From Caldisericales bacterium (GTDB taxonomy: Bacteria > Caldisericota > Caldisericia > Caldisericales > Caldisericaceae), in NCBI GenBank assembly GCA_015489815.1, contig WFZA01000049.1, positions 59,554-123,553 of the forward strand: a stretch of 64,000 nucleotides of DNA, read 5' to 3'. Shown here piece after piece: positions 978-40,603 of the stretch (positions within the stretch are counted from its first letter, which is position 1; each line of letters begins with the position of its first letter). The notes beneath the pieces were generated by a model that did no database searches, was not told the DNA's origin, and was given only the letters and a program-made list of their open reading frames with translations. A program made the position numbers and the translations under genes.

Positions 978-1120
978 ATTTCAGCCTCCAGGGCAAGGTG
1001 AGCGGACAAACAATCCGCAATTCCTGATCGGTGGTGATAGGTTTATGCCTTAAGCCCACGAGCCAAAAAGGCCGATTCGGTGAGAATCCGAAGCCGACAG
1101 TATAGTCTGGACGGAAGGAG
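978..1120 (+). ncRNA. FMN riboswitch (RFN element)
   Basis: The 3' part ...CCGAUUCGGUGAGAAUCCGAAGCCGACAGUAUAGUCUGGACGGAAGGAGG matches the conserved RFN 3' consensus (GAAGCCGACAGUGAAAGUCUGGAUGGGAGAAGGA). The upstream GGGCAAGGUGA and AGCCCACGAGCC segments match GGGCAGGGUGAAAUUCCC and AGCCCGUGACCCG. The P1 5' strand CCUCC (~984) pairs with GGAGG (~1116). It sits directly upstream of a RibU-like ECF S-component. Confidence 0.7.
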
Positions 1121-1147
1121 GTGAACGCTGACCCTGGACAGCTATTT

Positions 1148-21264: not shown

Positions 21265-21642
21265 ATGATTAAACTGATATACATAGCAACAGGTGGTGCA
21301 ATAGGTGCAGTACTCAGGTATGCAACTTCAGGTTTGTTTTACGCTTTAATGGGAACAAACTTCCCGTACGGGACGCTCTCAGTAAATGTTATAGGTTCTC
21401 TACTTATAGGATTTTTTTTCGAACTTTTAGAGCAAACTACGATATCTTCTGACATGCGTTTGCTGATATTCGTAGGTATATTTGGCGCATTTACTACATT
21501 CTCGAGCTTTAGCCTTGAAACGGTAAACTTATTTAGAGATGGAGAAATAATGCTCGCAACTGCAAACATTCTTCTGAACAATGTTCTTGCAATAGGAGGA
21601 ACGATATTGGGCATTCTCTCTTATAAGTACTTTTTTATTTAA
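21265..21642 (+). CDS. crcB: Fluoride ion channel CrcB/FluC
   Basis: 125-aa four-TM protein, MIKLIYIATGGAIGAVLRY...GTLSVNVIGSLLIGFF. Confidence 0.85.
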   Translation: MIKLIYIATGGAIGAVLRYATSGLFYALMGTNFPYGTLSVNVIGSLLIGFFFELLEQTTISSDMRLLIFVGIFGAFTTFSSFSLETVNLFRDGEIMLATANILLNNVLAIGGTILGILSYKYFFI

Positions 21643-21659
21643 CAAAAAGGGGTGATTAA

Positions 21660-22001
21660 ATGGAATTACCAGAAAATGGGACACTACTCAGAATTTTTAT
21701 AGGGGAAACGGATAAACACAACGGGAAGCTTCTTTATGAAGCAATTGTAAGCAAAGCAAAAGAACTAAACCTTGCTGGAGCCACAGTATTTAGAGGTATT
21801 CTTGGTTTCGGGGCACAGAGTAGAATTCACGCAGCAAAGTTTCTAAGGCTCTCTGAAGACGAACCAGTGGTAATAGAGATAGTAGACAAAAAAGAAAGAA
21901 TAGAACAAATTCTGCCGTTTCTCAACGAAGTAGTTGACAACGGATTAATTACGATGGAAGAGGTCAAAATTCTCAAATATGTACACAAAAGAAAAAAGTA
22001 G
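21660..22001 (+). CDS. DUF190 (PII-like) protein commonly partnered with crcB
   Basis: 113-aa protein, LLRIFIGETDKHNGKLLYEAIVSKAKELNLAGATVFRGILGFG. It lies directly downstream of crcB. Confidence 0.7.
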   Translation: MELPENGTLLRIFIGETDKHNGKLLYEAIVSKAKELNLAGATVFRGILGFGAQSRIHAAKFLRLSEDEPVVIEIVDKKERIEQILPFLNEVVDNGLITMEEVKILKYVHKRKK

Positions 22002-22040: not shown

Positions 22041-25000
22041 TTATGGATAAGTAATAGTTATACTACGCGTTGCATTATCCCATACGATTTTTGCACCAAA
22101 TGCCTCTGCTATAAACCTTAAAGGCACCATAGTGTGATTCTTTATAATGAGAGGCGGTGCATCAAGCATTACTTTTTTGTCGTTAATTGAAGCAAAACTT
22201 TTTCCTATTTGAAGGATAATCGTCCTGTTATTTAGAGTAATAAATACGAGTTTAAATACAGGATACCACTGAATCTTTGCACCAAATGCTTCCGATATAA
22301 ATCTTATTGGAACGAGCGTTCTGTTTTTTACTATCAGCGGCGGCGCATCAAGCAATTTCTTTTCGCCATTTACTATCACATACTTGTTTCCAATTTGAAG
22401 TATTATAGTAGTTTTAAGAATAAGTTTTACGGGAATTGATACTTTAGTTTTATTCCCTGCAAGGTCTGTTGCAACGACACTAATCGTGTTAAGGCCTTCT
22501 TTTGAAAGCGTTAAGGTGCAGGAGAACGAATAATCCTCCGGATTTACAGGTACTGAAATACCGTTAACTGTTACCTTTGCATTCTTTTCAGTCTTTCCCT
22601 TTACAGTTACAAATTGAGAGTGGATTACCTGGAATGCAACAGGAGCAAACACGGTAAGTTTTGGTGGCGTAGTATCTACACTTACGGTAAGGTTTACAGT
22701 TGTGACATTACCCGCCTGATCCGTTGCCTTAATAACAAATGCCGTTTTCTCTGAGATATTTTGGGAGTAAGTAAACGAACCGTCAGGAAGGACATCTACC
22801 GACTTTCCGTTCACCGTTACCGTCGCACTTTTTTCAGTTTTCCCCTTTATTACGCAATTATGTGTGTTTAATACTTCGTTATTTTTAGGTGAAAGAATAG
22901 TAAGTTTAGGAGGAATAGTATCTACTTTAAACTTCTTACTAACTACATCACTTTTGTTGTTTTCGTTATCAACTGCATAGCAGTAAAGCGTGTGCACTCC
23001 ATCAGGCACAGAGATCGGAGAAGTATAAATAGTAGGACTTCCGTTATCAAAGTAATAGTAAATTACCGGATGAGGGTCAATCGGGCTACTCGCAGTAAGT
23101 ATTACGATCGGATGCGTCTTGTAGTAGCCATTTAGTCCGTCTGGATTTTCAGGGTTAACGCTCATAGACACGGTAGGCAAAGCAACAATAGTAACCTTTT
23201 CTGCCTTTATCCAGGTAGGCTCTGCCGTGGTAGAGATTTCAAAGTAATAGTCACCTGTAGTCTTCGGATTTTTAATACCTGCACTTTTGTCAATTACCGC
23301 AGTTACGGTTGAATTAGGATAAATGTACACAGGTGTTCTTACTTCTACGACACTTCCTGAACGAACTCTTACATAACTAACAGGCATATTATTTATCTTT
23401 ACGGAAGTTATCGGAATATTGTGTGGCAGATAAAAACCGACTGGGAATTTTATTAAAATTTTGTCCACTCCTGCTTGAAGTGCGCCTGAGGCACCCGTTA
23501 CGAAAGAAACTGTAATAGAAATATTTTTACCAACGCCATTACTGCTTAGTTTTACTGTGGGATTCAATATATGAGATTTTACGATATGCACCTCGTAACT
23601 TACGGATACAGAATCTGCAGAGGTATACACTGAAAAGCTATAAGTTCCAGCATTATCTGGATTTCTGATGCCAGCCTCTTTTTTAAACACCACGGTAACA
23701 TTTGAATTATTGCCTACATAAACAGGAGTAATTATCGTAACTTTTCTATTTGAGATCGTAACATTGTACGCTTTACTACCGTTTACCAGAACATACGAAG
23801 AGTTAAAGTAAGAAGGTAGTTTAAATCCCTGTGGAAATTCCACAAAGATTTTACCGGAAGAAGCAGACAGTGCACCACCTGAGGAAGTAACAAACGCAAT
23901 GGTGCATTCAGAATTTGCATTTTGAGTATTAGGTTTCAATGTAACATTCAAATTTGATATTGAAGTTCCAACGATATTGTACTTGTTAGAAGTCGCTGGA
24001 ATTACATCTCTATTCGTAGAGAGCGTTAAAGTATACAATCCCGGAGGCGGATTTTTAATCCCGTAATTAGAAGAGATAAGGACATTGCAGGATGAGTTAT
24101 TGCCCACCGAAAGATTATTTGGCAGGTATATGGTTAAAGTTTCCCCGTTAACATACCTGCTCGCCACGCTTACGCCGTTTATCGTAATGTAATTTGGGCT
24201 TCCGTTAGGAATTTGCGTTCCCTGAGGGAAAGTAATTTTAATGTAGTCACCACCCGTGAGTGCCCCGTTAGGACCCGTAACAAACCAGATAGAATAAGTT
24301 GCTGCAGCATACGCCGTGTTGGGAGAAACAGAAACTGTAAGATTCTTTATGTTACTTTGCACGATCGTATACGAATTAGAAGTTGCAAATGCAGGCTCCT
24401 TGTTCGTAGCAAGTTGAATTGTATATGTGCCAGCAGGTGGGTTCTGCACTCCAAAGTCTGTAGTTATGTCAATAGAAGCCGTATAGTTCGCAGGACAATT
24501 CACAGGCGTCTTTATGTCGAGTTCAAGATTGCCCACTCTCGTAACACTTGAACAGTGATATCCATTTACCAGTACATAAGAAGCATTAATCGTAGAAGGA
24601 AGGACAGTACCCGAAGGAAATTTCACATATATGTGGTCATTGGTGTAAAGTGAAACATTGGGAACAAAAGAGATTGCATAGTCAGCAATACTTCCACTTG
24701 AAAGCGGGCTTACGATTACGGTCAAACTCCTTACCGTCTGTTGTATGTACAACGGATATGTCTGCGCTGCTTCCTTTGAAGTAGAAACCGAAATATCGTA
24801 ACTTCTCCCTCCAACAGGCGGATTCTTGATACCAGCAGAACTGTAGATTTGAATGTTTACACTTCCGTTTGCTGCAAGATCCTGTCCAGGATAGATTCTT
24901 ACCGTCTTCCCGCTTACAGTAACATTATAGGGCAAGACTCCGTTCACCCTTACAGCATTTTTATTAATCGTCGTAGGGACATAAAACTCATTTGCAAACT

Positions 25001-25196
25001 GCACTGAAATGTAATTCGCGTTTCTTGAAAGTGCCGCTGCTATCGTAATAGAAATTGTGTAGTTTGAAACCGTATTGGGCGTGTCTGGATTTGCAACTAC
25101 ACTATTTACCGTAAGCGCAAACGCAGAATGCGGTAATACCACCATTACAAGCAAGAGCACGAGAAAAACTGAAAGTACTCTCTTCATTTTTACCAC
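22041..25196 (-). CDS. Large secreted cell-surface protein: six or more ~115-aa novel repeats, two Ig-like domains and two C-terminal CAO-N-like anchoring domains
   Basis: Signal peptide. Repeat modules each end in ...S(S/N)xGI(K/Q/R)NP(P)xGxYxxxxST. They are followed by TPPKLT...KGKTEK...VNG Ig-like modules, and then LVPIRFISEAFGAKIQW and MVPLRFIAEAFGAKIVWDNATRSITI. Confidence 0.7.
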   Translation of the reverse strand: MVKMKRVLSVFLVLLLVMVVLPHSAFALTVNSVVANPDTPNTVSNYTISITIAAALSRNANYISVQFANEFYVPTTINKNAVRVNGVLPYNVTVSGKTVRIYPGQDLAANGSVNIQIYSSAGIKNPPVGGRSYDISVSTSKEAAQTYPLYIQQTVRSLTVIVSPLSSGSIADYAISFVPNVSLYTNDHIYVKFPSGTVLPSTINASYVLVNGYHCSSVTRVGNLELDIKTPVNCPANYTASIDITTDFGVQNPPAGTYTIQLATNKEPAFATSNSYTIVQSNIKNLTVSVSPNTAYAAATYSIWFVTGPNGALTGGDYIKITFPQGTQIPNGSPNYITINGVSVASRYVNGETLTIYLPNNLSVGNNSSCNVLISSNYGIKNPPPGLYTLTLSTNRDVIPATSNKYNIVGTSISNLNVTLKPNTQNANSECTIAFVTSSGGALSASSGKIFVEFPQGFKLPSYFNSSYVLVNGSKAYNVTISNRKVTIITPVYVGNNSNVTVVFKKEAGIRNPDNAGTYSFSVYTSADSVSVSYEVHIVKSHILNPTVKLSSNGVGKNISITVSFVTGASGALQAGVDKILIKFPVGFYLPHNIPITSVKINNMPVSYVRVRSGSVVEVRTPVYIYPNSTVTAVIDKSAGIKNPKTTGDYYFEISTTAEPTWIKAEKVTIVALPTVSMSVNPENPDGLNGYYKTHPIVILTASSPIDPHPVIYYYFDNGSPTIYTSPISVPDGVHTLYCYAVDNENNKSDVVSKKFKVDTIPPKLTILSPKNNEVLNTHNCVIKGKTEKSATVTVNGKSVDVLPDGSFTYSQNISEKTAFVIKATDQAGNVTTVNLTVSVDTTPPKLTVFAPVAFQVIHSQFVTVKGKTEKNAKVTVNGISVPVNPEDYSFSCTLTLSKEGLNTISVVATDLAGNKTKVSIPVKLILKTTIILQIGNKYVIVNGEKKLLDAPPLIVKNRTLVPIRFISEAFGAKIQWYPVFKLVFITLNNRTIILQIGKSFASINDKKVMLDAPPLIIKNHTMVPLRFIAEAFGAKIVWDNATRSITITYP

Positions 25197-25311: not shown

Positions 25312-26247
25312 TTATTTTTCGATGTATTTGTAAAATTTTTGCCCTTTTAGTCCCAATTCAACTATCTTATGTTCACTCTCCAGGAGCTCAATGTACTTTA
25401 AAACTTCGTCACGATGTACACCGAGGCCTTCTGCAAGGTCTTCAAGTGTCTGAGGCCTGATGCGTATACTGCTAATAATTGCCTTTTCAAGATCCGGTTT
25501 GTAAGCAGCATTCGTCTCTCTGTTGAAAGGCTTTATAATTTCTGCACCATTGCCTATAATTTTCTGCGCAAACTTTAATTCTTCGTCGTCCAGTGGCTTT
25601 GCAAAACCAAAAGCAGGCGGCCTTACGACCGTATTTATCTGTACCTTGTCAGCCTTTATTTCTGGAAGCACTTTCGAAAGTGCACGATAGTTTTCCTCAG
25701 TATCGTTTACCCCTTTAACGAGCATTATCTCAATAAGCAAAGTTCCTTTGTATGCTTTCCTGAAGTCGATAATTCCAGAGATGATTTTTTCTGCAGTTAC
25801 GCCTTTTGCAGGCTGATTTACTCTTCTAAGGTACTTATCGTCTGCTGCATCCAGAGTACACTTCACAAGATCAGCTGGTAGAAGTTCCTCTCTTACCTCC
25901 GGCAAATGCAAAAGTGTAGAATTCGTTAAAACGGCAACAGGAATTGACGTCATTTTTTTAATCTCACGGATCATGTAACCGATTTTAGAATTAAGAGTTG
26001 GCTCGCCAGAACCAGAAAATGTAATGTAATCTATTTTCCCGGGATATGTTTTTAGATATTCGCTTAGTTCGCTAAGTATCTCTTCTGCAGGAATATACTC
26101 TTTTCTTTCAAGCGTAAGCTGTGTAGTTTTTGCAACTTCACAGTAAACACAATTAAAGCTGCAAACTTTTAGAGGCACAGGATCTATACCAAGAGAAACA
26201 CCCAACCTTCTTGAAGGAACAGGACCGTATATGTGTTTGTATTCCAT
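25312..26247 (-). CDS. Radical SAM enzyme with a C-terminal winged-helix-like tail
   Basis: CSFNCVYCE (CxxxCxxC) follows the GPVPSRRLGVSLGIDP motif, and the GSGEPTL glycine-rich SAM motif is present. The last ~60 aa (TLEDLAEGLGVHRDEVLKYIELLE) look like a wHTH domain. Confidence 0.8.
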   Translation of the reverse strand: MEYKHIYGPVPSRRLGVSLGIDPVPLKVCSFNCVYCEVAKTTQLTLERKEYIPAEEILSELSEYLKTYPGKIDYITFSGSGEPTLNSKIGYMIREIKKMTSIPVAVLTNSTLLHLPEVREELLPADLVKCTLDAADDKYLRRVNQPAKGVTAEKIISGIIDFRKAYKGTLLIEIMLVKGVNDTEENYRALSKVLPEIKADKVQINTVVRPPAFGFAKPLDDEELKFAQKIIGNGAEIIKPFNRETNAAYKPDLEKAIISSIRIRPQTLEDLAEGLGVHRDEVLKYIELLESEHKIVELGLKGQKFYKYIEK

Positions 26248-26266
26248 TTTTTTTCACCTCCCTGAA

Positions 26267-26293
26267 CCCCCCGTTCATTTTTGAAACGGGGGG
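26267..26293 (-). promoter_or_regulatory. GC-rich intercistronic stem-loop between the NifX-like and radical-SAM genes
   Basis: CCCCCCGTT-9-nt loop-AACGGGGGG, a 9-bp stem in an AT-rich genome. It has no U-tract and is followed on the minus strand by the AGGGAGGTG RBS of the radical-SAM gene. Confidence 0.4.
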
Positions 26294-26300
26294 ATAGTTG

Positions 26301-26822
26301 TTATCTTTCAGATTCAATTTTTTCTATACGGTTAATCAGGTTCTGTGTTCTCTTTTTTAATACTTCCACGGCCTCTTTTAAACCTTTAATTTCAGCACTC
26401 AAGTCAAAATTTTCAGAACGAGAAGCACGATGTGGTTCGTGTTCACCAGAGTGCTCGTGTTCGTGTTTAGGCTCAGAAAAAACGACATTTTCTGGTGCAT
26501 TTGCAAATTCACCTTTCTTATAGCGTTCCACTGCTTCCCTTAAGGTTCCTGTAACTCCCGTAATAATTTTTACACCAGCCTCCTGTAATACCTCTCCAGA
26601 ATTCGGTCCCATATTTACAGTTAAAACGACATTTGCTCCTTTATTTACTATGAACTGCGCAGCCTGTATACCCGCGCCACTCATTGCGCTCGCAGCCGGG
26701 TTCGGTACAATTTCAAACCTATCTGTGTCCGTATCGTAAAAGGCATAATACGGACACCTACCGAAGGAACTACTTACCATTGCGTTTTCATCACTGCCAT
26801 CTGACGGTAAACAAATAATCAT
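26301..26822 (-). CDS. NifX/NafY-like (dinitrogenase FeMo-cofactor-binding domain) protein with a His/Glu-rich and coiled-coil C-terminal extension
   Basis: GRCPYYAFYD...GAGIQAAQFIVNKGANVVLTVNMGPNSGEVLQEAGVKII matches the Nitro_FeMo-Co fold (PF02579-like). The tail is PKHEHEHSGEHEPH followed by a heptad-rich EIKGLKEAVEVLKKRTQNLINRIEKIESER. Confidence 0.75.
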   Translation of the reverse strand: MIICLPSDGSDENAMVSSSFGRCPYYAFYDTDTDRFEIVPNPAASAMSGAGIQAAQFIVNKGANVVLTVNMGPNSGEVLQEAGVKIITGVTGTLREAVERYKKGEFANAPENVVFSEPKHEHEHSGEHEPHRASRSENFDLSAEIKGLKEAVEVLKKRTQNLINRIEKIESER

Positions 26823-26834
26823 ATCTAACCTCCT

Positions 26835-27128
26835 CTACTTTTCCAATTCCGAAAGTCTTTTTTCAATTTCCGTTAGTGTATCGGAAATGTTTTTCAAAAC
26901 ATCGTGGATTGCAAGAACCTCGTCTTTTTTGCTATATCCGTATGAGGCATATGGCGTATATTCAACACCATTTGGATAGTACCCCCACTTCCACCATCCG
27001 CGTGGAAGCCATGGATAAGCCCTACAATAAGGGGTAGGATTGCCAAATCCATATGCCCTACCAAAGCCATAGCCAAAGCGTCTGCCATAACCAAAACCAC
27101 CGCCAAAACCATAACCGTATCTGAACAT
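26835..27128 (-). CDS. Small Gly/Tyr/Arg-rich low-complexity protein with a C-terminal coiled coil (DUF5320-like)
   Basis: MFRYGYGFGGGFGYGRRFGYGFGRAYGFGNP...WWKWGYYPNGVEY followed by DEVLAIHDVLKNISDTLTEIEKRLSELEK. My recollection is that DUF5320 proteins combine a G/R-rich N-terminus with a coiled-coil tail. Confidence 0.55.
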   Translation of the reverse strand: MFRYGYGFGGGFGYGRRFGYGFGRAYGFGNPTPYCRAYPWLPRGWWKWGYYPNGVEYTPYASYGYSKKDEVLAIHDVLKNISDTLTEIEKRLSELEK

Positions 27129-27132
27129 ATTG

Positions 27133-27534
27133 TCACCTCCCTTCTTTATTTAAAATGTTTTTAATTTTTACATGCCCATCTGCTTTTAAAACTCTGCAAG
27201 CATCGTACGATGCTTTGCCCTGTGCAATTGCAAGTGCACAATCCATACAGGTAGGATACCCGCACGCCTTGCAATTAATTTTAGGTAAAACTTCGTAAAT
27301 TTCATCAGCCAATTTTTTTGTTTTTTCGTCAATATTTTCTAACGAACTTCTCACAGTAGTATCAGTAACAAATACCCCTTTACTGCTCCTGCCATAAGCA
27401 ACGCCTCTACCAACTCTCCGGCCAAATCCTCTACCCAGCCCTCTGCCAAAACCGCGGCCTTTTCCAATTCCACCGCCTCTTCTACCGGTAAATGGCCCTT
27501 CTCCCCGTGGTCCTGTTCCATCACCAAAAGGCAT
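27133..27534 (-). CDS. Gly/Arg-rich (RGG/GRG repeat) protein with a C-terminal RnfB-type putative Fe-S cluster motif
   Basis: N-terminus MPFGDGTGPRGEGPFTGRRGGGIGKGRGFGRGLGRGFGRRVGRG. The C-terminus CKACGYPTCMDCALAIAQGKASYDAC matches the CxxCGYPxC...AxAIAxG...C motif of the RnfB/ACS 'FeS' domain (PF04060-like). Confidence 0.6.
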   Translation of the reverse strand: MPFGDGTGPRGEGPFTGRRGGGIGKGRGFGRGLGRGFGRRVGRGVAYGRSSKGVFVTDTTVRSSLENIDEKTKKLADEIYEVLPKINCKACGYPTCMDCALAIAQGKASYDACRVLKADGHVKIKNILNKEGR

Positions 27535-27968
27535 TACTTGTCACCTCCGTCCTTACAATTTCCACACTCACCAAATATTTGCATTTCAAAAGAAGATAAA
27601 CTAAAGTTATACTTATTTTTCAACAATTCTTTAATTTCTTTAAGGAACTTTCTGACTTCCTTGCTATCCTCTGAAAAATCCATTATGTCGCCGCAATTCG
27701 TGCAAACCAGATGAATCTTAGCAATGTGTGGCTTCTTTTTTAACTGATAGTGCTTTTTCTTTTTCCCAGAAATAGAAATAGATTCTACAACTCCATTCTT
27801 TTCGAACAACTTTAGACTTCTATAAACAGAAGCAAAGCCAATACCTGGATAAAGTTTTCTTGCTACTTCAAACACTTCTTCCGCCGTTAAGTGTTTTTTG
27901 CTATTATTTAATACGGCAAGTACTACTTCGCGTGGTTTTGTCATTCTGAAACTATTTTTTACTTTCAT
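27534..27968 (-). CDS. Fur-family metalloregulator (Fur/PerR/Zur-like)
   Basis: MTKPREVVLAVL...HLTAEEVFEVARKLYPGIGFASVYRSLKLFEKNGVV, a structural Zn site (CTNCG...ECGNC). The start is taken at the MKVKN ATG, which has an AAAGGAG RBS; this is M13 of the track ORF. Confidence 0.8.
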   Translation of the reverse strand: MKVKNSFRMTKPREVVLAVLNNSKKHLTAEEVFEVARKLYPGIGFASVYRSLKLFEKNGVVESISISGKKKKHYQLKKKPHIAKIHLVCTNCGDIMDFSEDSKEVRKFLKEIKELLKNKYNFSLSSFEMQIFGECGNCKDGGDK

Positions 27969-28166
27969 GCTATCATCTCCTTTGAAATTGATTATTATTC
28001 TCATAAATATGATACTAAAAAACTAAAAAATTGCAATACCTTTACAACGCCTTAACCTGCAAAAATACGGTGACTTCCTCAAAAATAAGTATTGTGTAAT
28101 TTTTAAATTTTGCTATAATACCGCCTTGCTAAAATAACAGTAATTTTTAAAAACTTGAGGTGTAAA

Positions 28167-29519
28167 ATGATTAAAAAATGGTTTGTTTCATACGGATTAC
28201 AAGGCATAGGGTTGAGCAGTTTAATGATAGTTATAACACTATTTGCAGCGGTTGCACTGCACGGTAATGTGCAACAAGCAACTGCAGCAGCGGCTTTATA
28301 CTCAACGGGCACACTCGTAGGCTCATTATTCGTGGGCAACCTGCTGGATAGAAAGCCGCTTTACGGGAGAGTCGTTTTCTCTGGTTTTATGGCAAGTAGT
28401 ATAATAACTGCAGTTATGCCGTTCTCTTTTAACTTAAAAGCATATATGGTATCCGCAATTCTGCTTGGCTTCTCAATATCTATGATAAATCCAGCTATTA
28501 CGCTTTACCTTTCACGCCATTTTGACGACGAAAAGTATAGGAAGTACATTAATAACTTCTATCTTGGGAATAGCATCGGCATAACGCTCGGTACATTCGC
28601 AGGAGGATATATTCTTTCTGTATTGCCAATGCTCGCAGAAGCAGATAGGATGAGAATATTGTTTCTCGTTTCGTCTCTGCTTTTTGCAATTAGTGCTGTA
28701 ATCAGCGCTGACATCCCTAAGATAAAAAGAATTAAAAGGGTACGAAAAGAAAGAAAGTTTACGGTAAGTGTTAGGCCTATTTTTGCAAGTCTAAGGCTTA
28801 TTCCCCGTACATTTCCAAAGAAAATCGATCTTTCTGCATTCAGCAAAGAGATTAAGCTCTACCTTGCTGGAGTATTTACGATATTTTTTGGTGCTAACCT
28901 ATTCTTCTCCCCGTTTCCCGTATATCTAAAAGAAGGCCTCAGCATACCTGCATCGACAATTTTCCTTATGTATGGACTGGGAAACATAGCAGCGACACTT
29001 GCTTATCTGTTCACACGGCATGCAATGGAACGCTTTAGAGACTTTTCGATTATGCGCGCCGTTTTATGGGCGCGCATCTTTAGTTTCTTTGGAATCGTCG
29101 TATTTGGTATGTTACACTCAATAGAATGGACCCTTATCACATTTGTTCTGATAAACTTTACATGGCCATTTCTTTACATTACATCCACAGTCCAGGCAAC
29201 GAAACTTGCAAAAGACGAAAACAAAGGGAGAGTACTTGGATTATTTAATGTCGTAATTAGCTTTGCAGTAATACTTGCATCATTTTTGTCAGGGATGCTG
29301 GCACTTCGCATAGGATACTATCTTACATTTTTGATAGGTGCGGTAATTTTGTTCATAGGCGAGAGAATAACATATCTCGTTGCAAAGAAAGTGCCTATTC
29401 CGAAAGAAATCGTAGAAAAACTTAACGAACGAAAAAAGAAAGAAAGTAGAATAAGGAAACTTAAAATTAGAAAATTCTCAGGCTTTTTAAAAGAAAAAAA
29501 TTCAGGGCAGTGCTTTTAA
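28167..29519 (+). CDS. MFS transporter
   Basis: 12-TM protein transcribed divergently from the Fur-family operon. The start is at the MIKKWF ATG, which has a GAGGTG RBS. Confidence 0.8.
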   Translation: MIKKWFVSYGLQGIGLSSLMIVITLFAAVALHGNVQQATAAAALYSTGTLVGSLFVGNLLDRKPLYGRVVFSGFMASSIITAVMPFSFNLKAYMVSAILLGFSISMINPAITLYLSRHFDDEKYRKYINNFYLGNSIGITLGTFAGGYILSVLPMLAEADRMRILFLVSSLLFAISAVISADIPKIKRIKRVRKERKFTVSVRPIFASLRLIPRTFPKKIDLSAFSKEIKLYLAGVFTIFFGANLFFSPFPVYLKEGLSIPASTIFLMYGLGNIAATLAYLFTRHAMERFRDFSIMRAVLWARIFSFFGIVVFGMLHSIEWTLITFVLINFTWPFLYITSTVQATKLAKDENKGRVLGLFNVVISFAVILASFLSGMLALRIGYYLTFLIGAVILFIGERITYLVAKKVPIPKEIVEKLNERKKKESRIRKLKIRKFSGFLKEKNSGQCF

Positions 29520-30558: not shown

Positions 30559-32820
30559 CTATCCGCCGTAAATAATCGTCACGGTACGCGTCGTTCCATC
30601 CCACTCGACCTGCGCACCAAATGCTTCCATAATAAAGCGAATTGGCACATAGGTCCTGTTATGAATAATAATCGGCACAACTTTAGGATTGTTTGGATCT
30701 ATCTGTTTGGGGACGCCGTTTACATACGCCGTGTTCTTTCCAATGTATAGTTCAACTTTATCGTTGTTTAGCGTAATCGTTACTTTGCGCTGAACGGGAT
30801 CCCATTCTACATCCGCACCAACTGCTTCAGTTACAAACCTTATCGGAACAAGTGTTCTGTTATTTTCAATAATAGGAGGAACATCTGTTGGGACGAACTT
30901 TCCATTTACCGTCATTCCCTTCTGGTCAATAACCATTTTTACTACCACTTTACTGCTCTTTTTCTGGTCGTAAATGTATAATCCACCTGATTCCGTACCA
31001 ACGAAAATTGCTCCACTCTTTTTGTATACAAAGTCCGGGCTAAACACCGTTCTGAAAACATATCTATTATCTTTGTCCCCGTTAATGTTCGTCCACATAT
31101 TTCCCTCGTCGAAACTCAGGTAAACCCCATCCCAGGAACCTGCAAGAATAATGTGGTCATTTGCAAAGTTTGGGGAAAGTTTTACGCCGTCGTCCCACAT
31201 GTGGTACTTTAACAACGCATCAGATATATTGGTGAAACTATCTCCACCGTCTTTTGAGAGATATAATCCTGCACCCATCGTCCCTACGATCAGCGTCTGA
31301 TCGTTTTCAAAGTTTCTTGAAAGTGAAATATCTGCAATCGTATAGTGAGGGATTTTATTAAACCCAATGGATGTCCACATTTTGCCCTGATTTAAGGTTT
31401 CGTATACAGTGCCACCATTCGTGCCTATAAAGATTGCGTTACCCACGCCGTCAACTGCCGTAATGTCAGTATCGTACGGTAACATACCCTTGTTTCTCTG
31501 AACAAATGTACTTCCACCGTCGGTTGAAACGAACATTCCCTTATCTCCACTGCCTACATATATTACACCCTTTTCGTCCTCAAATAGTACGGAGATGTAA
31601 TTCGTGTCGATGTTTACTTTACTAAAAGTACTTCCACCATCGGTTGTTTCGTATAAACCGTCACCTTCAGTTCCTACGAAGTATGTCTTCGAATTTCCGC
31701 AAACACTCGTTACGATGTCGCCTTCGGGAAGCGCGGAAACATTTGTGAATGTCTTGCCTTTATCTGTAGACTCGTAAAGTCCATTCCACTTAGTACTTAC
31801 AAATACTGTGCCGTCGTTTGCGTAATCCGTAGAAAAGTTGATTGCCGTAATGTCAGTGCAGGTAATTCCGTAACTTGACTTCGTAAAGTTACCGTTTTCT
31901 ACTTTATACACACCTCTTCCCTGCGTACCGACAAAAATTGTGCCATTATCGACACAGATCGCAGAAAGAATAAGGTTGCCGTCCTTTGCAACGCTTTTCC
32001 AATTTTCCCCATCGTATTCCATTACACCGTTTGAAACAGTTGCCGCATACACTTTACCGTTATCCAGCACGAAGTCATTTATTTTGTAACCTTTAAGCAT
32101 GTGATCTAAATTATCTGCACTGCCCATAAACATACCATCGTAAAAAGTAGAAATATAAAAAGTGCCGTCCTGGTAAATAATTTTTGATACCGGACTTTCC
32201 GTTACACTGTCTACGATTTTTTCGGAATCTTTTCCGTCAAGGCTTACTTTATAAACAGTTCCATCCTCACAACCTACATAAACATAATCGGAAGTTGCGT
32301 AAATTGCAGTTGCCGTAGGTTTAGTAAACCTTGCAATTGTTTTCCAGAGCTGTTCCTGCTTATTCCATTTCATCAGCAGGCCGTCAAACGACAGTGCAAA
32401 AATGTCACCTTCAGAATCTTCCGCAAGGCCTATAATGTAACTTGATTCAAGGCCCATGTTAAAGAACTGGAAGTGCTGCCCTTTGTCCCTGCTTAAAAAT
32501 ACACCATCTTTCGTCCCGAGAAATAAACCATCCTTACAGTAATTTTTAGATATAAGAACTGCATTCGCACCTTCAGAAAAAGTAAATGGGAGCTTTTCCC
32601 ACTTCTTTCCAGAGTCAGTGCTTTCAAAAATCGCTGCATCAGTAGAGGCAATAAGCGCTCCACCAGACATTTTTTGAATTGAAGTTATAAAGCCACCGTT
32701 TATTGATGCAGGATTTCTCCAGTGGACTTCGTCGTCAGCCTTAGCAATGTGACCAAAAAAGAATAAAGGCATAACAACCAGTGCAAGAACAACAAATAGT
32801 ACTAAAAACTTCTTTTTCAC
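30559..32820 (-). CDS. Secreted BNR/Asp-box beta-propeller repeat protein with two C-terminal CAO-N-like anchoring domains
   Basis: Multiple S-x-D-x-G-x-T-(W/F) repeats (STDSGKKW, SRDKGQHF, STDKGKTF, TTDGGSTF, STDGGSTF, SKDGGDSF). C-terminus ...NNRTLVPIRFVTEAVGADVEWDPVQRKVTI...HNRTYVPIRFIMEAFGAQVEWDGTTRTVTI. Confidence 0.7.
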   Translation of the reverse strand: MKKKFLVLFVVLALVVMPLFFFGHIAKADDEVHWRNPASINGGFITSIQKMSGGALIASTDAAIFESTDSGKKWEKLPFTFSEGANAVLISKNYCKDGLFLGTKDGVFLSRDKGQHFQFFNMGLESSYIIGLAEDSEGDIFALSFDGLLMKWNKQEQLWKTIARFTKPTATAIYATSDYVYVGCEDGTVYKVSLDGKDSEKIVDSVTESPVSKIIYQDGTFYISTFYDGMFMGSADNLDHMLKGYKINDFVLDNGKVYAATVSNGVMEYDGENWKSVAKDGNLILSAICVDNGTIFVGTQGRGVYKVENGNFTKSSYGITCTDITAINFSTDYANDGTVFVSTKWNGLYESTDKGKTFTNVSALPEGDIVTSVCGNSKTYFVGTEGDGLYETTDGGSTFSKVNIDTNYISVLFEDEKGVIYVGSGDKGMFVSTDGGSTFVQRNKGMLPYDTDITAVDGVGNAIFIGTNGGTVYETLNQGKMWTSIGFNKIPHYTIADISLSRNFENDQTLIVGTMGAGLYLSKDGGDSFTNISDALLKYHMWDDGVKLSPNFANDHIILAGSWDGVYLSFDEGNMWTNINGDKDNRYVFRTVFSPDFVYKKSGAIFVGTESGGLYIYDQKKSSKVVVKMVIDQKGMTVNGKFVPTDVPPIIENNRTLVPIRFVTEAVGADVEWDPVQRKVTITLNNDKVELYIGKNTAYVNGVPKQIDPNNPKVVPIIIHNRTYVPIRFIMEAFGAQVEWDGTTRTVTIIYGG

Positions 32821-35989: not shown

Positions 35990-38851
<2,862 letters not shown>

Positions 38852-39169
38852 AATTAGGCCTCCTTCCCGACCTTTAAGTTTCCACTTTTTCCTTTATATT
38901 TATACCAATATTTAAATAAAAATCAACTACACTCGTAGAAGATCCCCGAACGAATACCTGTATTAGTTCTTCCTGAAAGAGCTTTTCTGCATACAGAACC
39001 TGCACGACTTAAATCCTATGGAATAGCCTTTTCTCAAATCTTCAAGTCTGAAATTAAATCCTTTTTAGAAAGATTAAACAAAATTGTTGAACGGCACAGT
39101 AAAAGAGCTGTCACAAAAAATTTTAATAAAAATCAATCTTGAAAGCGCCAATAATCGAAATTGAAACTC

Positions 39170-39345
39170 ATTATCACAAAATTTTGAACCTTTAAAACCC
39201 TGTATTTATCAAGGCTAATTCAAAACATGCCATTTAAATGCCCATAGACGCAAATCTTGAGAAAAATCGGGTAAATATACCTGCAAAACGCTTAAAACGC
39301 CTTATTTTAGAAGGCAATAAAGCCTGTATTTATCAGTGTTTCTTT
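39170..39345 (+). repeat. Copy A of a ~170-bp intergenic repeat element
   Basis: About 90% identical to the reverse complement of 63270..63455. It is bounded by internal direct repeats CCTGTATTTATCA (39199 and 39323) and carries a CATTTAAATG palindrome. Confidence 0.6.
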
Positions 39346-39931
39346 GATCCAGACCAAAATTAAATATGATTTTTCAGGTTATAATTCTTAGAAACCCTTT
39401 ATTCATCTGCATTTCTTAATGTCACAATTTTTCACTTTTCCGAACAAAAATTCGATATTTTTACCTTAAATTAGCCTCAATAAAGTTTAATAATAACTGC
39501 ACTAAAGTACAGCGTTTTAGTAAGTGCTTTTAGGAGGTAAAGCGGGAATCCTAATACTCATAACCACTTATTGCCGTAGCATGGCTGCTATATCTATTGC
39601 CCACATCGCAAGTTACAATTACATTCAAGTCCCAAATCACCCCTAAAAACTTTTCCTTATTTTTACTTATAGAAGTCCATGGTTTCCAGCAGAGAAAAAT
39701 GTTAAAAAGACATTTGCACAAGTACCGTAAATTGTTGTGCTTATAATTATTAAAGGAAAGCAACTCGAAAAACAGACTTTGCACTATTTCAGGAATTGAA
39801 CGAAGCATTTTTTGGAGAAGGCCATTCAATATAAATTCCTCCACGGCACAAAATAGCCTCCAGACATTTTAGAGCAAGTTTGCTGCTAATTAAGATAAGT
39901 GATAAGCAGAATACATCCGAAAATCACTGAG

Positions 39932-40026
39932 AGTTATAACTATACTGATAAAGATTTTCCTCCCATAACATAGCAACCGAAGTTATTAATACTACGAGTA
40001 TGTAGAACAAAGTTATAGTTATAACT
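39932..40026. repeat. 13-bp perfect inverted repeat (AGTTATAACTATA / TATAGTTATAACT) with a 69-nt loop, flanked by direct repeats CAGAATACATCC(R)AAA
   Basis: The inverted-repeat arms are at 39932-39944 and 40014-40026. The direct repeats are at 39907-39922 and 40095-40110. Confidence 0.4.
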
Positions 40027-40332
40027 ACAAATGTGACCGATTAACCTTTTAAAAATCTCTCTTTCTAAATTTTATTTATAAAGGTGTGGAATTTCAGAAT
40101 ACATCCAAAAGTTTTCAGGAAGTTGTAGTTCATTTAACAAGTGTCTTTCTACAGTACAACGATTGGAGTACTTGCTCGTATGTATTAACAAGGGGCGCAA
40201 AGTTGCAATATAACGGTGCGAGGAATAACTAAAGCTCAAAATTTTATCCTTTACGATCTTTAGATTCAAAAAGTATAAGACTTCTGGAATATAGCAGCCT
40301 TAAAGCAATTTTATTCAGGCTCAAAAAGTAAA

Positions 40333-40603
40333 GCGCTGTGCGTCTGCAGTTGACTGCTCCTTACCAGCGGTACGGCAGCAGGAAACTCCAGTGAGGCAAC
40401 CCTACGGCACATGGTACACCTTCTTACCGCTGCTTCCTTCCGGACCTCACGGGGTTCAAAGGCTTCCATTGCATAGGACCCCACCTTCAACATTTCCTAA
40501 CTGCCGCCAGCCTGACAAGGAGACAGCCGCCTGCAGATTGTCAGCCCCGGTATAGCAGGTTCCGGGTTACAGGGCACTGCTATCTCCCCGCTTTAGCACA
40601 GCA
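40333..40603 (-). ncRNA. ffs: Signal recognition particle RNA, long Bacillus-type form with Alu domain (ffs/scRNA)
   Basis: The minus-strand sequence UGCUAAAGCGGGGAGAUAGCAGUGCCCUGUAACC... matches the Alu-domain 5' region. ...GUGAGGUCCGGAAGGAAGCAGCGGUAAG...CAUGUGCCGUAGGGUUGCCUCAC matches the domain IV helix 8 motif. This GC-rich ~270-nt island sits in AT-rich DNA. A TATAAT at 40609-40614 (minus) lies just upstream. Confidence 0.85.

Follow-up and report, generated by a model that had tools for sequence, protein, structure and literature searches.

A compact five-gene operon lies on the minus strand of a 64,000-nucleotide stretch of DNA from a Caldisericales bacterium (contig WFZA01000049.1; the whole stretch is called the window below). 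It encodes, in order, a Fur-family regulator, a 133-aa protein that joins a DUF5320 segment to an iron-sulfur (Fe-S) domain of the PF04060 family, a 97-aa protein rich in glycine and aromatic residues, a NifX-like protein and a radical-SAM enzyme (rSAM). The same gene order recurs in related genomes, a Fur box occupies the same position upstream of the regulator in all seven loci compared, and members of the gene set are fused in frame to one another elsewhere. Based on these data, we propose that the operon is autoregulated through its Fur box, that it handles Fe-S or metal-sulfide species of a labile kind and that the rSAM is functionally linked to this task; we put the probability of this reading at about 40%. 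Iron-sulfur trafficking and storage in strict anaerobes are poorly understood, and to our knowledge no NifX-domain proteins other than those of the ORP complex and IssA have been studied outside nitrogen fixation; their cellular roles are still unclear. The locus belongs to this known but poorly understood kind of system, to which it contributes a regulatory pairing of Fur with an Fe-S domain, a DUF5320::PF04060 architecture found in one lineage only and an rSAM that recurs as a partner. As a compact unit of five genes it also provides a convenient minimal system for biochemistry.

Gene order, conservation and the Fur box

The five open reading frames (ORFs) are co-directional and run from 27968 to 25312 (Table 1), with junctions, in gene order, of a 1-nt overlap (TAATG at 27534) followed by gaps of 4, 12 and 53 nt. 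The Fur ATG at 27968 carries the ribosome-binding site (RBS) AAAGGAG and is kept in relatives, and it is taken as the start because the Fur box and promoter hold a conserved offset to it across loci. A longer Fur ORF from 28004 was dismissed, since that ATG falls within the Fur box itself. An earlier reading of this DNA, made from the sequence alone (the sequence-only reading), had described five tightly packed co-directional genes with gaps or overlaps of 0 to 53 nt and had placed the Fur start at 27968; the ORFs, junctions, RBS and box offset agree on both counts, and its domain calls all proved correct by Pfam.

Table 1. Features of the operon and its upstream region (window coordinates)
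Feature	Position	Strand	Basis or remark
Sigma-70-like promoter, TTGCAA-16-TATCAT	28009-28036	minus	upstream of the Fur gene
Fur box, GAGAATAATAATCAATTTC	27984-28002	minus	15/19 match to the classical GATAATGATAATCATTATC
Fur-family regulator, 144 aa	27534-27968	minus	Pfam FUR
DUF5320::PF04060 Fe-S protein, 133 aa	27133-27534	minus	Pfam; ATG overlaps the Fur stop codon
Divergent DUF5320 protein, 97 aa	26835-27128	minus	Pfam (below cut-off), composition, heptads
NifX-like (PF02579) protein, 173 aa	26301-26822	minus	Pfam
GC-rich hairpin, CCCCCCGTT-N9-AACGGGGGG, 9 bp	26267-26293	minus	downstream of the NifX-like stop codon and ahead of the rSAM RBS
Radical-SAM enzyme (rSAM), 311 aa	25312-26247	minus	Pfam; C-terminal winged helix
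MFS transporter, divergent from the Fur gene	28155-29519	plus	Pfam MFS_1 3.2e-41

The rSAM locus of the window is identical in hot-spring-type metagenome contigs and in the metagenome-assembled genome (MAG) GCA_027075265.1, and the closest named homologues come from Caldisericaceae/Caldisericota. At least six related genomes, with rSAM identities of 69-77%, retain the gene order of the window amid differing flanks. Loci L087, L093 and L094, whose rSAM proteins are 72-77% identical to that of the window, have all five genes in the window's succession (Fur, DUF5320::FeS, small G/Y-rich protein, NifX-like protein, rSAM); the downstream flank of L087 differs. The recurrence of one order in independent genomes with different flanks argues that the arrangement is beyond chance, and gene-neighbourhood conservation, which the sequence-only reading had left to be checked, thus holds in relatives. 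In L089/L090 and L095 (two assemblies; rSAM identity 69-71%) the surroundings are different: the first two proteins form a single Fur::DUF5320::FeS fusion of 264-265 aa, and a gene for an MBL-fold hydrolase of about 240 aa is inserted before the rSAM. This MBL gene (L089:5279-6004, L095:5282-6004 and, in a further locus, L092:1423-2085) overlaps the start of the rSAM or NifX::rSAM gene in each case, its stop codon overlapping the next start codon. It is absent from the window, where a conserved hairpin occupies the same junction. L089 also carries two MinD-type ATPase genes with ferredoxin inserts upstream. More distantly, locus L048, from a MAG labelled Actinomycetes, matches the gene order of the window exactly: Fur is followed by a DUF5320 gene, a second DUF5320 gene whose product has a coiled coil, a NifX-like gene whose product ends in a G/R tail, the rSAM and finally DUF89.

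Upstream of the regulator, the Fur box of the window directly follows the -10 hexamer, so that the probable start of the transcript falls within it; its inner 7-1-7 reads TGAGAATAATAATCA. The promoters found at the same place in relatives fit the consensus better (TTGACA-17-TATAAT). In 7/7 compared loci, namely the window, L087, L089, L093, L094, L095 and L048, the last from another phylum, a box with 15-17 of 19 matches stands upstream of the Fur ATG at an offset of -33 to -36, with p<=0.006 when the upstream regions are shuffled one by one. Scanning only the window is not significant, since at least 15/19 matches arise about 0.85 times per shuffled window, so the case rests on the conserved position. 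The box itself was computed in each of the seven loci and shows the operon to be under the control of a predicted Fur operator; the metal-responsive control suggested by the sequence-only reading is thereby upheld. The only other 15/19 Fur-box-like site of the window, GAAATTGAAACTCATTATC at 39157-39175, lies inside a stretch of about 1.4 kb (38900-40330) that has no ORF of at least 100 aa and no Rfam or tRNA match. That stretch sits between a 416-aa gene ending at 38851 and the signal recognition particle (SRP) RNA at 40336-40601.

A simple terminator scan gave nothing convincing around the operon. The junction between the NifX-like and rSAM genes contains the hairpin listed in Table 1, which lacks a U-tract, and a hairpin of -19 to -23 kcal/mol is found there in 4/4 genomes in which the NifX-like gene directly precedes the rSAM gene, with a sequence that differs in each of the four. 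It may be an intra-operon attenuator or stability element that lowers the level of the rSAM below that of the upstream proteins.

The regulator and the small proteins

The first protein is a clear member of the Fur family (PF01475, 99.8 bits against a cut-off of 23.1, 1.5e-28), with C. jejuni Fur as its best PDB match (1e-19), and it retains both CxxC pairs (CTNC, CGNC) of the structural Zn(Cys)4 site. The regulatory metal sites are another matter. When the clade is aligned to solved Fur proteins and to E. coli Fur, the residues of the first site (E. coli H33/E81/H90/E101) are H, Q, H and D, and every clade member has Gln where E. coli has E81. In the second site H87, D89 and H125 have become Ile, Ile and Phe (H125 is Phe, Ile or Leu across the clade), and E108 falls beside an alignment insertion and could not be placed. 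The clade therefore departs from the canonical regulatory residues, whereas the Fur of L048 is fully canonical. DNA recognition by the clade looks classical, given the conserved box.

The sister clade encodes this Fur and the DUF5320::FeS protein as one in-frame fusion, and the fused forms lack the C-terminal CxxC. The fusion is seen in nine protein clusters with identities as low as 57%, one of them on a 573-kb contig, which argues that it is no artefact. A tenth protein, P0179, has Fur fused to a full aromatic-rich DUF5320 with coiled coil. Degeneracy of the metal-sensing residues coincides exactly with the presence of a coupled or fused Fe-S domain partner. No description of a Fur fused to an Fe-S domain was found in the literature; if true, a Fur with degenerate metal sites and a CoFeSP/RnfB-type Fe-S domain as its translationally coupled or fused partner would represent a new mode of iron/Fe-S sensing. 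A separate observation concerns a Woesearchaeota MAG (L097:7001-7687), where a DUF5320 gene abuts a gene for DUF134, a predicted DNA-binding family, and adjoins a Zip metal permease gene; this pairing echoes the placement of DUF5320 beside the DNA-binding regulator Fur.

DUF5320 proteins are built of an N-terminal motif (MPxGDGTGPxGxGPxTGRG), a G/R-rich linker and a C-terminal coiled coil. The 133-aa protein (DUF5320/PF17253, 40.4 bits, cut-off 27; PF04060, 50.1 bits, cut-off 23) has the motif, MPFGDGTGPRGEGPFTGRRGG, and an RG-rich linker in residues 1-60 (pI 12), followed by a PF04060 domain in place of the coiled coil. This RnfB/CoFeSP-type domain bears the motif CKACGYPTCMDC...C and gives partial NCBIfam matches to the N-terminus of the ACDS gamma subunit (6e-12) and to RnfB/RsxB (1e-10). 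Its PF04060 cysteines (CX2CX4C...X16C) are conserved in the alignment and form a predicted [4Fe-4S] site. The architecture is limited to a Caldisericota-like lineage (14 protein clusters). The reverse order, with PF04060 first and a GRGxGRG tail after it, occurs in P0149, P0153 and P0161 (L098:3050-3430), in which the Cys pattern is altered by loss of the first Cys of CxxC and gain of PCxGC.

The 97-aa protein is a more divergent relative. It scores 22.9 bits with the Pfam DUF5320 model, below the cut-off of 27, and 21.7 bits with a DUF5320 hidden Markov model (HMM) built without it; its orthologue in L089 (L089:4405-4767) scores 74.8 bits with PF17253. It lacks the N-terminal motif and keeps the linker and coiled coil: residues 1-66 hold 16 G, 23 Y/F/W, 7 R/K, 6 P and 1 Cys (pI 9.6), and residues 67-97 form a heptad coiled-coil tail. 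The DUF5320 modules are thus redistributed in the window, with motif and linker on the 133-aa protein and heptad tails on the 97-aa and NifX-like proteins. Composition, heptads and Pfam scores bear out the earlier description of the pair as an RGG/GRG N-terminus joined to an RnfB-type Fe-S motif and a G/Y/R-rich protein with a coiled-coil tail. The searches made turned up no description of DUF5320 function in the literature. It is a named, unstudied family whose modular design is repeatedly joined to Fe-S-binding domains.

The fourth protein matches Nitro_FeMo-Co (PF02579) with 86.5 bits (1.5e-24). Its globular part (residues 1-105) is followed by a His/Glu-rich linker (KHEHEHSGEHEPH; residues 106-140, pI 5.4) and a C-terminal coiled-coil heptad tail. 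The nearest solved structures are TM1290 (1rdu, 1.3e-17), MTH1175 (1eo1, 1.5e-17) and ORP (2wfb, 2e-13), the NCBIfam model of the MrpORP C-terminal domain gives 3e-8, and the PDB matches include no NifX, NafY or NifB chain. The original label, NifX/NafY-like, is thus sound for the PF02579 domain, the His/Glu tract and the tail, and has to be replaced by TM1290/MTH1175/ORP for the closest kin. Elsewhere the domain is fused to other parts of the set: NifX::DUF5320-C fusions, verified with Pfam, occur in L008, L031 and L057. Two proteins encoded directly downstream of rSAM homologues (L018:4606-5820 and L058:8972-10237) match the NifX profile, and downstream rSAM neighbours include three Cation_efflux and three Nitro_FeMo-Co matches. 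These two are consistent with fusions of a cation-diffusion-facilitator (CDF) to a NifX domain, and CDF::NifX proteins would be another sign of the NifX-like domain dealing with metal species.

The composition of the small proteins invites comparison with IssA (PF2025) of Pyrococcus furiosus, a thioferrate-binding protein with a PF02579 domain and a cationic, aromatic, Gly-rich tail proposed to wrap the anionic thioferrate (PMC5524996). Over 70 residues, that tail contains 15 Gly, 14 aromatic and 7 cationic positions, a single Cys and a stretch rich in Pro, and its pI is 10.7; IssA expression is iron-dependent, and IssA needs no partner proteins (PMC5524996). The window has the same ingredients, namely a PF02579 domain of the MTH1175 clade, a cationic Gly/aromatic low-complexity segment with a single Cys, and predicted iron-linked expression, and residues 1-66 of the 97-aa protein share the chemical character of the IssA tail. 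The operon might therefore be an IssA-type store split over several chains, in which the NifX-like domain nucleates a thioferrate-like polymer and DUF5320 proteins, recruited through their coiled coils, act as the tail. The nearness of the NifX-like protein to TM1290 and to MTH1175, which serves as the IssA-type structural template, fits such an arrangement, as does L048, where the NifX-like protein bears a G/R-rich tail on the same chain. However, the low-complexity segments of the window are on separate DUF5320-type polypeptides with coiled-coil tails, and the NifX-like protein has an acidic, His-rich tail where IssA has a cationic one. The Fur box predicts repression at plentiful iron, the opposite regulatory sign to that of IssA, and partners would be superfluous by the IssA precedent; the PF04060 domain and the rSAM are extras that a split store leaves unexplained. 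We consider such a store doubtful.

The radical-SAM enzyme and its neighbourhoods

The rSAM (Pfam Radical_SAM, 72.1 bits) has the cluster motif C29xxxC33xxC36 and only four cysteines in all, of which C29, C33 and C36 alone are conserved across 75 homologues. The family is marked by the motifs GPVPSRRLGxSLGID, CxxxCxYC, SGSGEPTL and NTVxRPP. The AF2 model of the rSAM of the window (pLDDT 88.7) places three helices and a beta-hairpin in residues 251-308, a C-terminal winged helix that is also backed by matches to ArsR-type regulator profiles and, in homologues, to TrmB/HTH_11. The model and the profiles thus agree with the CxxxCxxC enzyme with wHTH-like C-terminus read from the sequence. The possibility that this winged helix is a recognition element for ribosomally synthesised and post-translationally modified peptides (RiPPs), with DUF5320 as the substrate, was set aside, the matches being of ArsR/TrmB type and DUF5320 lying near the rSAM in 13/80 distant loci.

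Placement of the rSAM in a characterised family was tried with NCBIfam models and by fold. All NCBIfam scores stay far below the cut-offs: 46.2 against 284 for MoaA, 44 against 380 for the tungsten cofactor oxidoreductase rSAM maturase, 38.7 against 318 for TYW1, 38.0 against 232 for PflA and 23.3 against 290 for RlmN; no NifB model is among the matches listed. Foldseek returns PFL-activase, TYW1, NifB, RlmN and viperin at E values of about 1e-9 to 1e-10 and TM 0.5-0.6 (for NifB, 6y1x, E 1e-9 and TM about 0.53), and these matches reflect the shared radical-SAM core only. By these scores the rSAM falls in no named family. Because only three cysteines are conserved and there is no auxiliary cluster, it is not NifB, MoaA, TYW1 or a SPASM enzyme.

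The sequence-only reading had seen in the rSAM and its NifX-like neighbour a split version of NifB. The likeness lies in the pairing of a radical-SAM protein with a PF02579 domain, which elsewhere takes the form of a fusion, and in the presence of NifB among the fold matches. As a statement of family membership the idea is not borne out: the rSAM has no ligands for the K1 and K2 clusters, there are no nif genes nearby, and the NifX-like protein is nearest to TM1290/MTH1175/ORP. In the NifX::rSAM fusions (P0055 and P0106, two clusters) the NifX domain is N-terminal, unlike in NifB. These fusion proteins nonetheless support a putative functional link between the rSAM and the NifX-like protein.

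The partial matches bear on a different possibility, the handling of molybdenum or tungsten sulfides (Mo/W), in which the NifX-like protein would bind a thiometallate as ORP does and the rSAM would be a distant relative of MoaA or of the tungsten-cofactor maturase. These two are its best partial NCBIfam matches. ORP itself, a 2e-13 match of the NifX-like protein, binds a Mo-Cu-S cluster, [S2MoS2CuS2MoS2], and MrpORP transfers Fe-S (PMC6345978). DUF364, which has been linked in the literature to molybdate/tungstate uptake, adjoins the rSAM in 7/80 distant loci. The scores are far under their cut-offs, though, the MoaA C-terminal auxiliary-cluster cysteines are missing, and the box upstream of the operon is a canonical Fur box of the iron type, not one for ModE. 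No guild gene, DUF364 included, was found elsewhere in the window, where Mo/W transporters were not specifically searched. Mo/W handling is in our view quite improbable.

The rSAM family is very large, with 7,986 of 8,000 scored candidates at E<=1e-10 and about 8,000 clusters at 90% identity; homologues at about 50% identity occur across bacterial phyla and in Methanocellales. JGI labels homologues 'wyosine synthetase', and no description of the family was found in the literature, including searches for COG1433 or COG1149 with radical SAM. Its wider context was sampled by fetching 80 distant rSAM loci, calling their ORFs and counting profile matches within 8 kb of the rSAM. Single-sequence phmmer searches of these ORFs were too insensitive (1 Fur and 4 DUF5320::FeS matches), and the counts use jackhmmer and custom HMMs. 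NifX-like genes were found near the rSAM in 19 of the 80 loci, DUF5320 in 13 and MinD-Fer4 in 18; 24 loci have at least one of the three, always on the same strand. An MBL-fold gene is present in 16, and any family of the guild in 48. A typical supercluster begins with two to four MinD-Fer4 genes, continues with one to three DUF5320 genes, one to three NifX-like genes and MBL, and closes with the rSAM, which lies at or near the 3' end (examples are L008 from Methanocellales, L031, L032, L047, L057 and L064). A very large uncharacterised family thereby gains recurrent partners (NifX-like, DUF5320, MinD-ferredoxin, MBL) and fusions that point to its context.

The genes immediately beside the rSAM differ from locus to locus; among them are genes for NUBPL/Mrp-type ParA, MinD+Fer4, MBL, ARMT1-like/DUF89, DUF6485 and CGGC proteins, and further NifU_N, DUF6125, DUF364, CDF transporters and Nitro_FeMo-Co; literature searches on DUF6125, DUF6485 and CGGC gave nothing relevant. 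A jackhmmer search with the PF04060 domain matched nothing in the 80 loci, which places the Fe-S domain outside the general rSAM guild. Sampling from DUF5320 or PF04060 instead of the rSAM retrieves the same guild without the rSAM, as in L096 (DUF5320, two MinD-Fer4 genes, a NifX-like gene) and L098 (NifX-like, CbiA and PF04060 genes). The neighbourhood of DUF5320, NifX-like and Mrp/MinD genes, of which the sequence-only reading had named the form with Mrp, is therefore real in distant loci. The partnership with Fur and a radical-SAM enzyme, not described as far as that reading knew, is kept in relatives and is lineage-restricted in its Fur part, Fur occurring near the rSAM in 1/80 distant loci (L048).

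These counts raise the possibility of a looser linkage, in which the unit consists of Fur, the DUF5320 proteins and the NifX-like protein, and the rSAM is a housekeeping tRNA/rRNA-modifying or other enzyme that adjoins Fe-S handling genes merely as an Fe-S client. The varied neighbours and the many distant loci that lack NifX, DUF5320 and MinD-Fer4 (56/80) favour this view, as does P0022 (Calditrichota), which stands without any cluster; the conserved hairpin parts the rSAM from the upstream genes, the winged helix resembles DNA-binding ArsR/TrmB domains, the best fold matches include TYW1 and RlmN, and homologues bear the JGI name given above. Such a view does not account for the NifX::rSAM fusions in two clusters, for the 24/80 loci of various phyla in which the rSAM gene stands on the same strand as its partners and close to or at the 3' end, or for the MBL/rSAM stop-start overlaps in L089, L095 and L092. 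The rSAM also stays below threshold for TYW1, RlmN and every other named family, and TYW1 has an auxiliary cluster where the rSAM has none. We hold the looser linkage to be possible, if on the unlikely side, and retain the rSAM as a linked partner in the working model.

Proposed working and relation to known systems

In the scheme that we favour, whose biochemical steps, direction of regulation and rSAM substrate are all inferred, the Fur-family protein would bind the box over the transcript start and repress its own operon. The DUF5320::FeS protein, translationally coupled to Fur, would work physically with it and probably report Fe-S or redox status, a role that fits the degenerate sensor sites of the clade's Fur. 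A parallel is OrpR, which controls the orp operons of Desulfovibrio and senses redox through a [4Fe-4S] cluster (PMC8359166). Alternatively, the PF04060 protein with its predicted [4Fe-4S] site may serve as an electron donor to the rSAM. The NifX-like and 97-aa proteins would associate through their similar C-terminal coiled coils, forming a scaffold on whose NifX domain anionic, labile species of Fe-S (or metal sulfide) would be held. The rSAM, made from the same transcript at a level probably lowered by the conserved hairpin, would either act on the NifX-bound cluster or be served by it. The possible function in cofactor maturation or delivery that the sequence-only reading put forward stays conjectural. 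Classical Fur logic predicts induction at low iron, and a Suf-like carrier or salvage role thus fits better than IssA-like storage.

Several points weigh against this proposal. As many as 56 of the 80 distant loci have no NifX, DUF5320 or MinD-Fer4 gene within 8 kb, so that the rSAM is not obligately tied to these families, and the rSAM gene may be uncoupled if the hairpin acts as a terminator. Neutral loss of the stop codon between two coupled genes could account for the Fur-FeS fusion. The NifX-like tail is acidic and His-rich, unlike the cationic tail of IssA, and scores only 8.4 bits with the DUF5320 HMM built without the 97-aa protein of the window. Expression under iron starvation, as Fur logic predicts, misfits IssA-like storage at iron and sulfide excess. 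A search of the 64 kb found none of the MinD-Fer4 and Mrp ATPases of ORP clusters. Finally, the cluster proteins and DUF5320 are known from sequence alone, and the literature searches turned up DUF5320 in just two incidental mentions.

A bolder form of the proposal starts from the adjacency of rSAM and NifX-like partners in about a quarter of lineages and their fusion in some. The widespread single-cluster rSAM family and a NifX-like domain would then give anaerobes a second, NifB-independent radical route for building, remodelling or mobilising a complex metal-sulfur species held on a NifX-type scaffold, with the cationic DUF5320 proteins as co-scaffolds and, in Caldisericota, with Fur sensing handed over to a partnered or fused [4Fe-4S] domain. 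We advance this form as a speculation that is unlikely to hold.

Among known systems, the ORP complex of Desulfovibrio vulgaris (Orp3/4/5/8/9) is the closest counterpart. Both it and the window locus are anaerobe-specific and organised around a small NifX-like protein with small Fe-S accessories, each has a regulator of its own with a tie to an Fe-S cluster (OrpR in Desulfovibrio; for the Fur of the window, a predicted one), and Orp3/4-type MinD-ferredoxin ATPases are added in L089 and in distant loci. The window itself has no Orp3/4-type MinD-Fer4 or Orp9-type Mrp-NifX ATPase, and its sigma-70-like promoter with a Fur box differs from the sigma-54/OrpR/IHF control of orp. Radical SAM is not mentioned in the two ORP papers searched, one of which is the OrpR paper (PMC8359166).

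The suf genes of E. coli are Fe-S genes behind Fur/IscR control, with a Fur operator that overlaps the promoter. The window likewise has Fe-S handling genes behind a Fur operator overlapping the promoter, so induction would be expected when iron or Fe-S is scarce. The gene families are wholly different, however, and the regulator is inside the operon and, in the sister clade, fused to the Fe-S domain.

The divergent MFS gene shares the intergenic region with the Fur promoter. It stands divergent from the Fur gene in the window, L087, L093 and L094 and does not do so in L089, L095 or L048, and is treated as context only, its membership in the unit being uncertain. The operon is flanked by genes for two very large secreted proteins, at 22041-25196 and 30559-32820 (both minus strand), one with Big_13 and Glucodextran_B domains and the other with beta-propeller and Sortilin-Vps10 domains; both end in C-terminal 'stalk' repeats of the copper-amine-oxidase-N1 type. 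The protein at 22041-25196 is absent at the same position in L087, L093 and L094. Shortly downstream of the locus, and on the other strand, comes a pair of genes for CrcB, a fluoride channel, and DUF190 (21265-22001, plus strand), which is kept in L093 and L094; no fluoride riboswitch is reported at the Rfam gathering threshold. A flavin mononucleotide (FMN) riboswitch at 980-1126 (plus strand, Rfam 94.5 bits) is located upstream of the plus-strand ORF 1121-1693.

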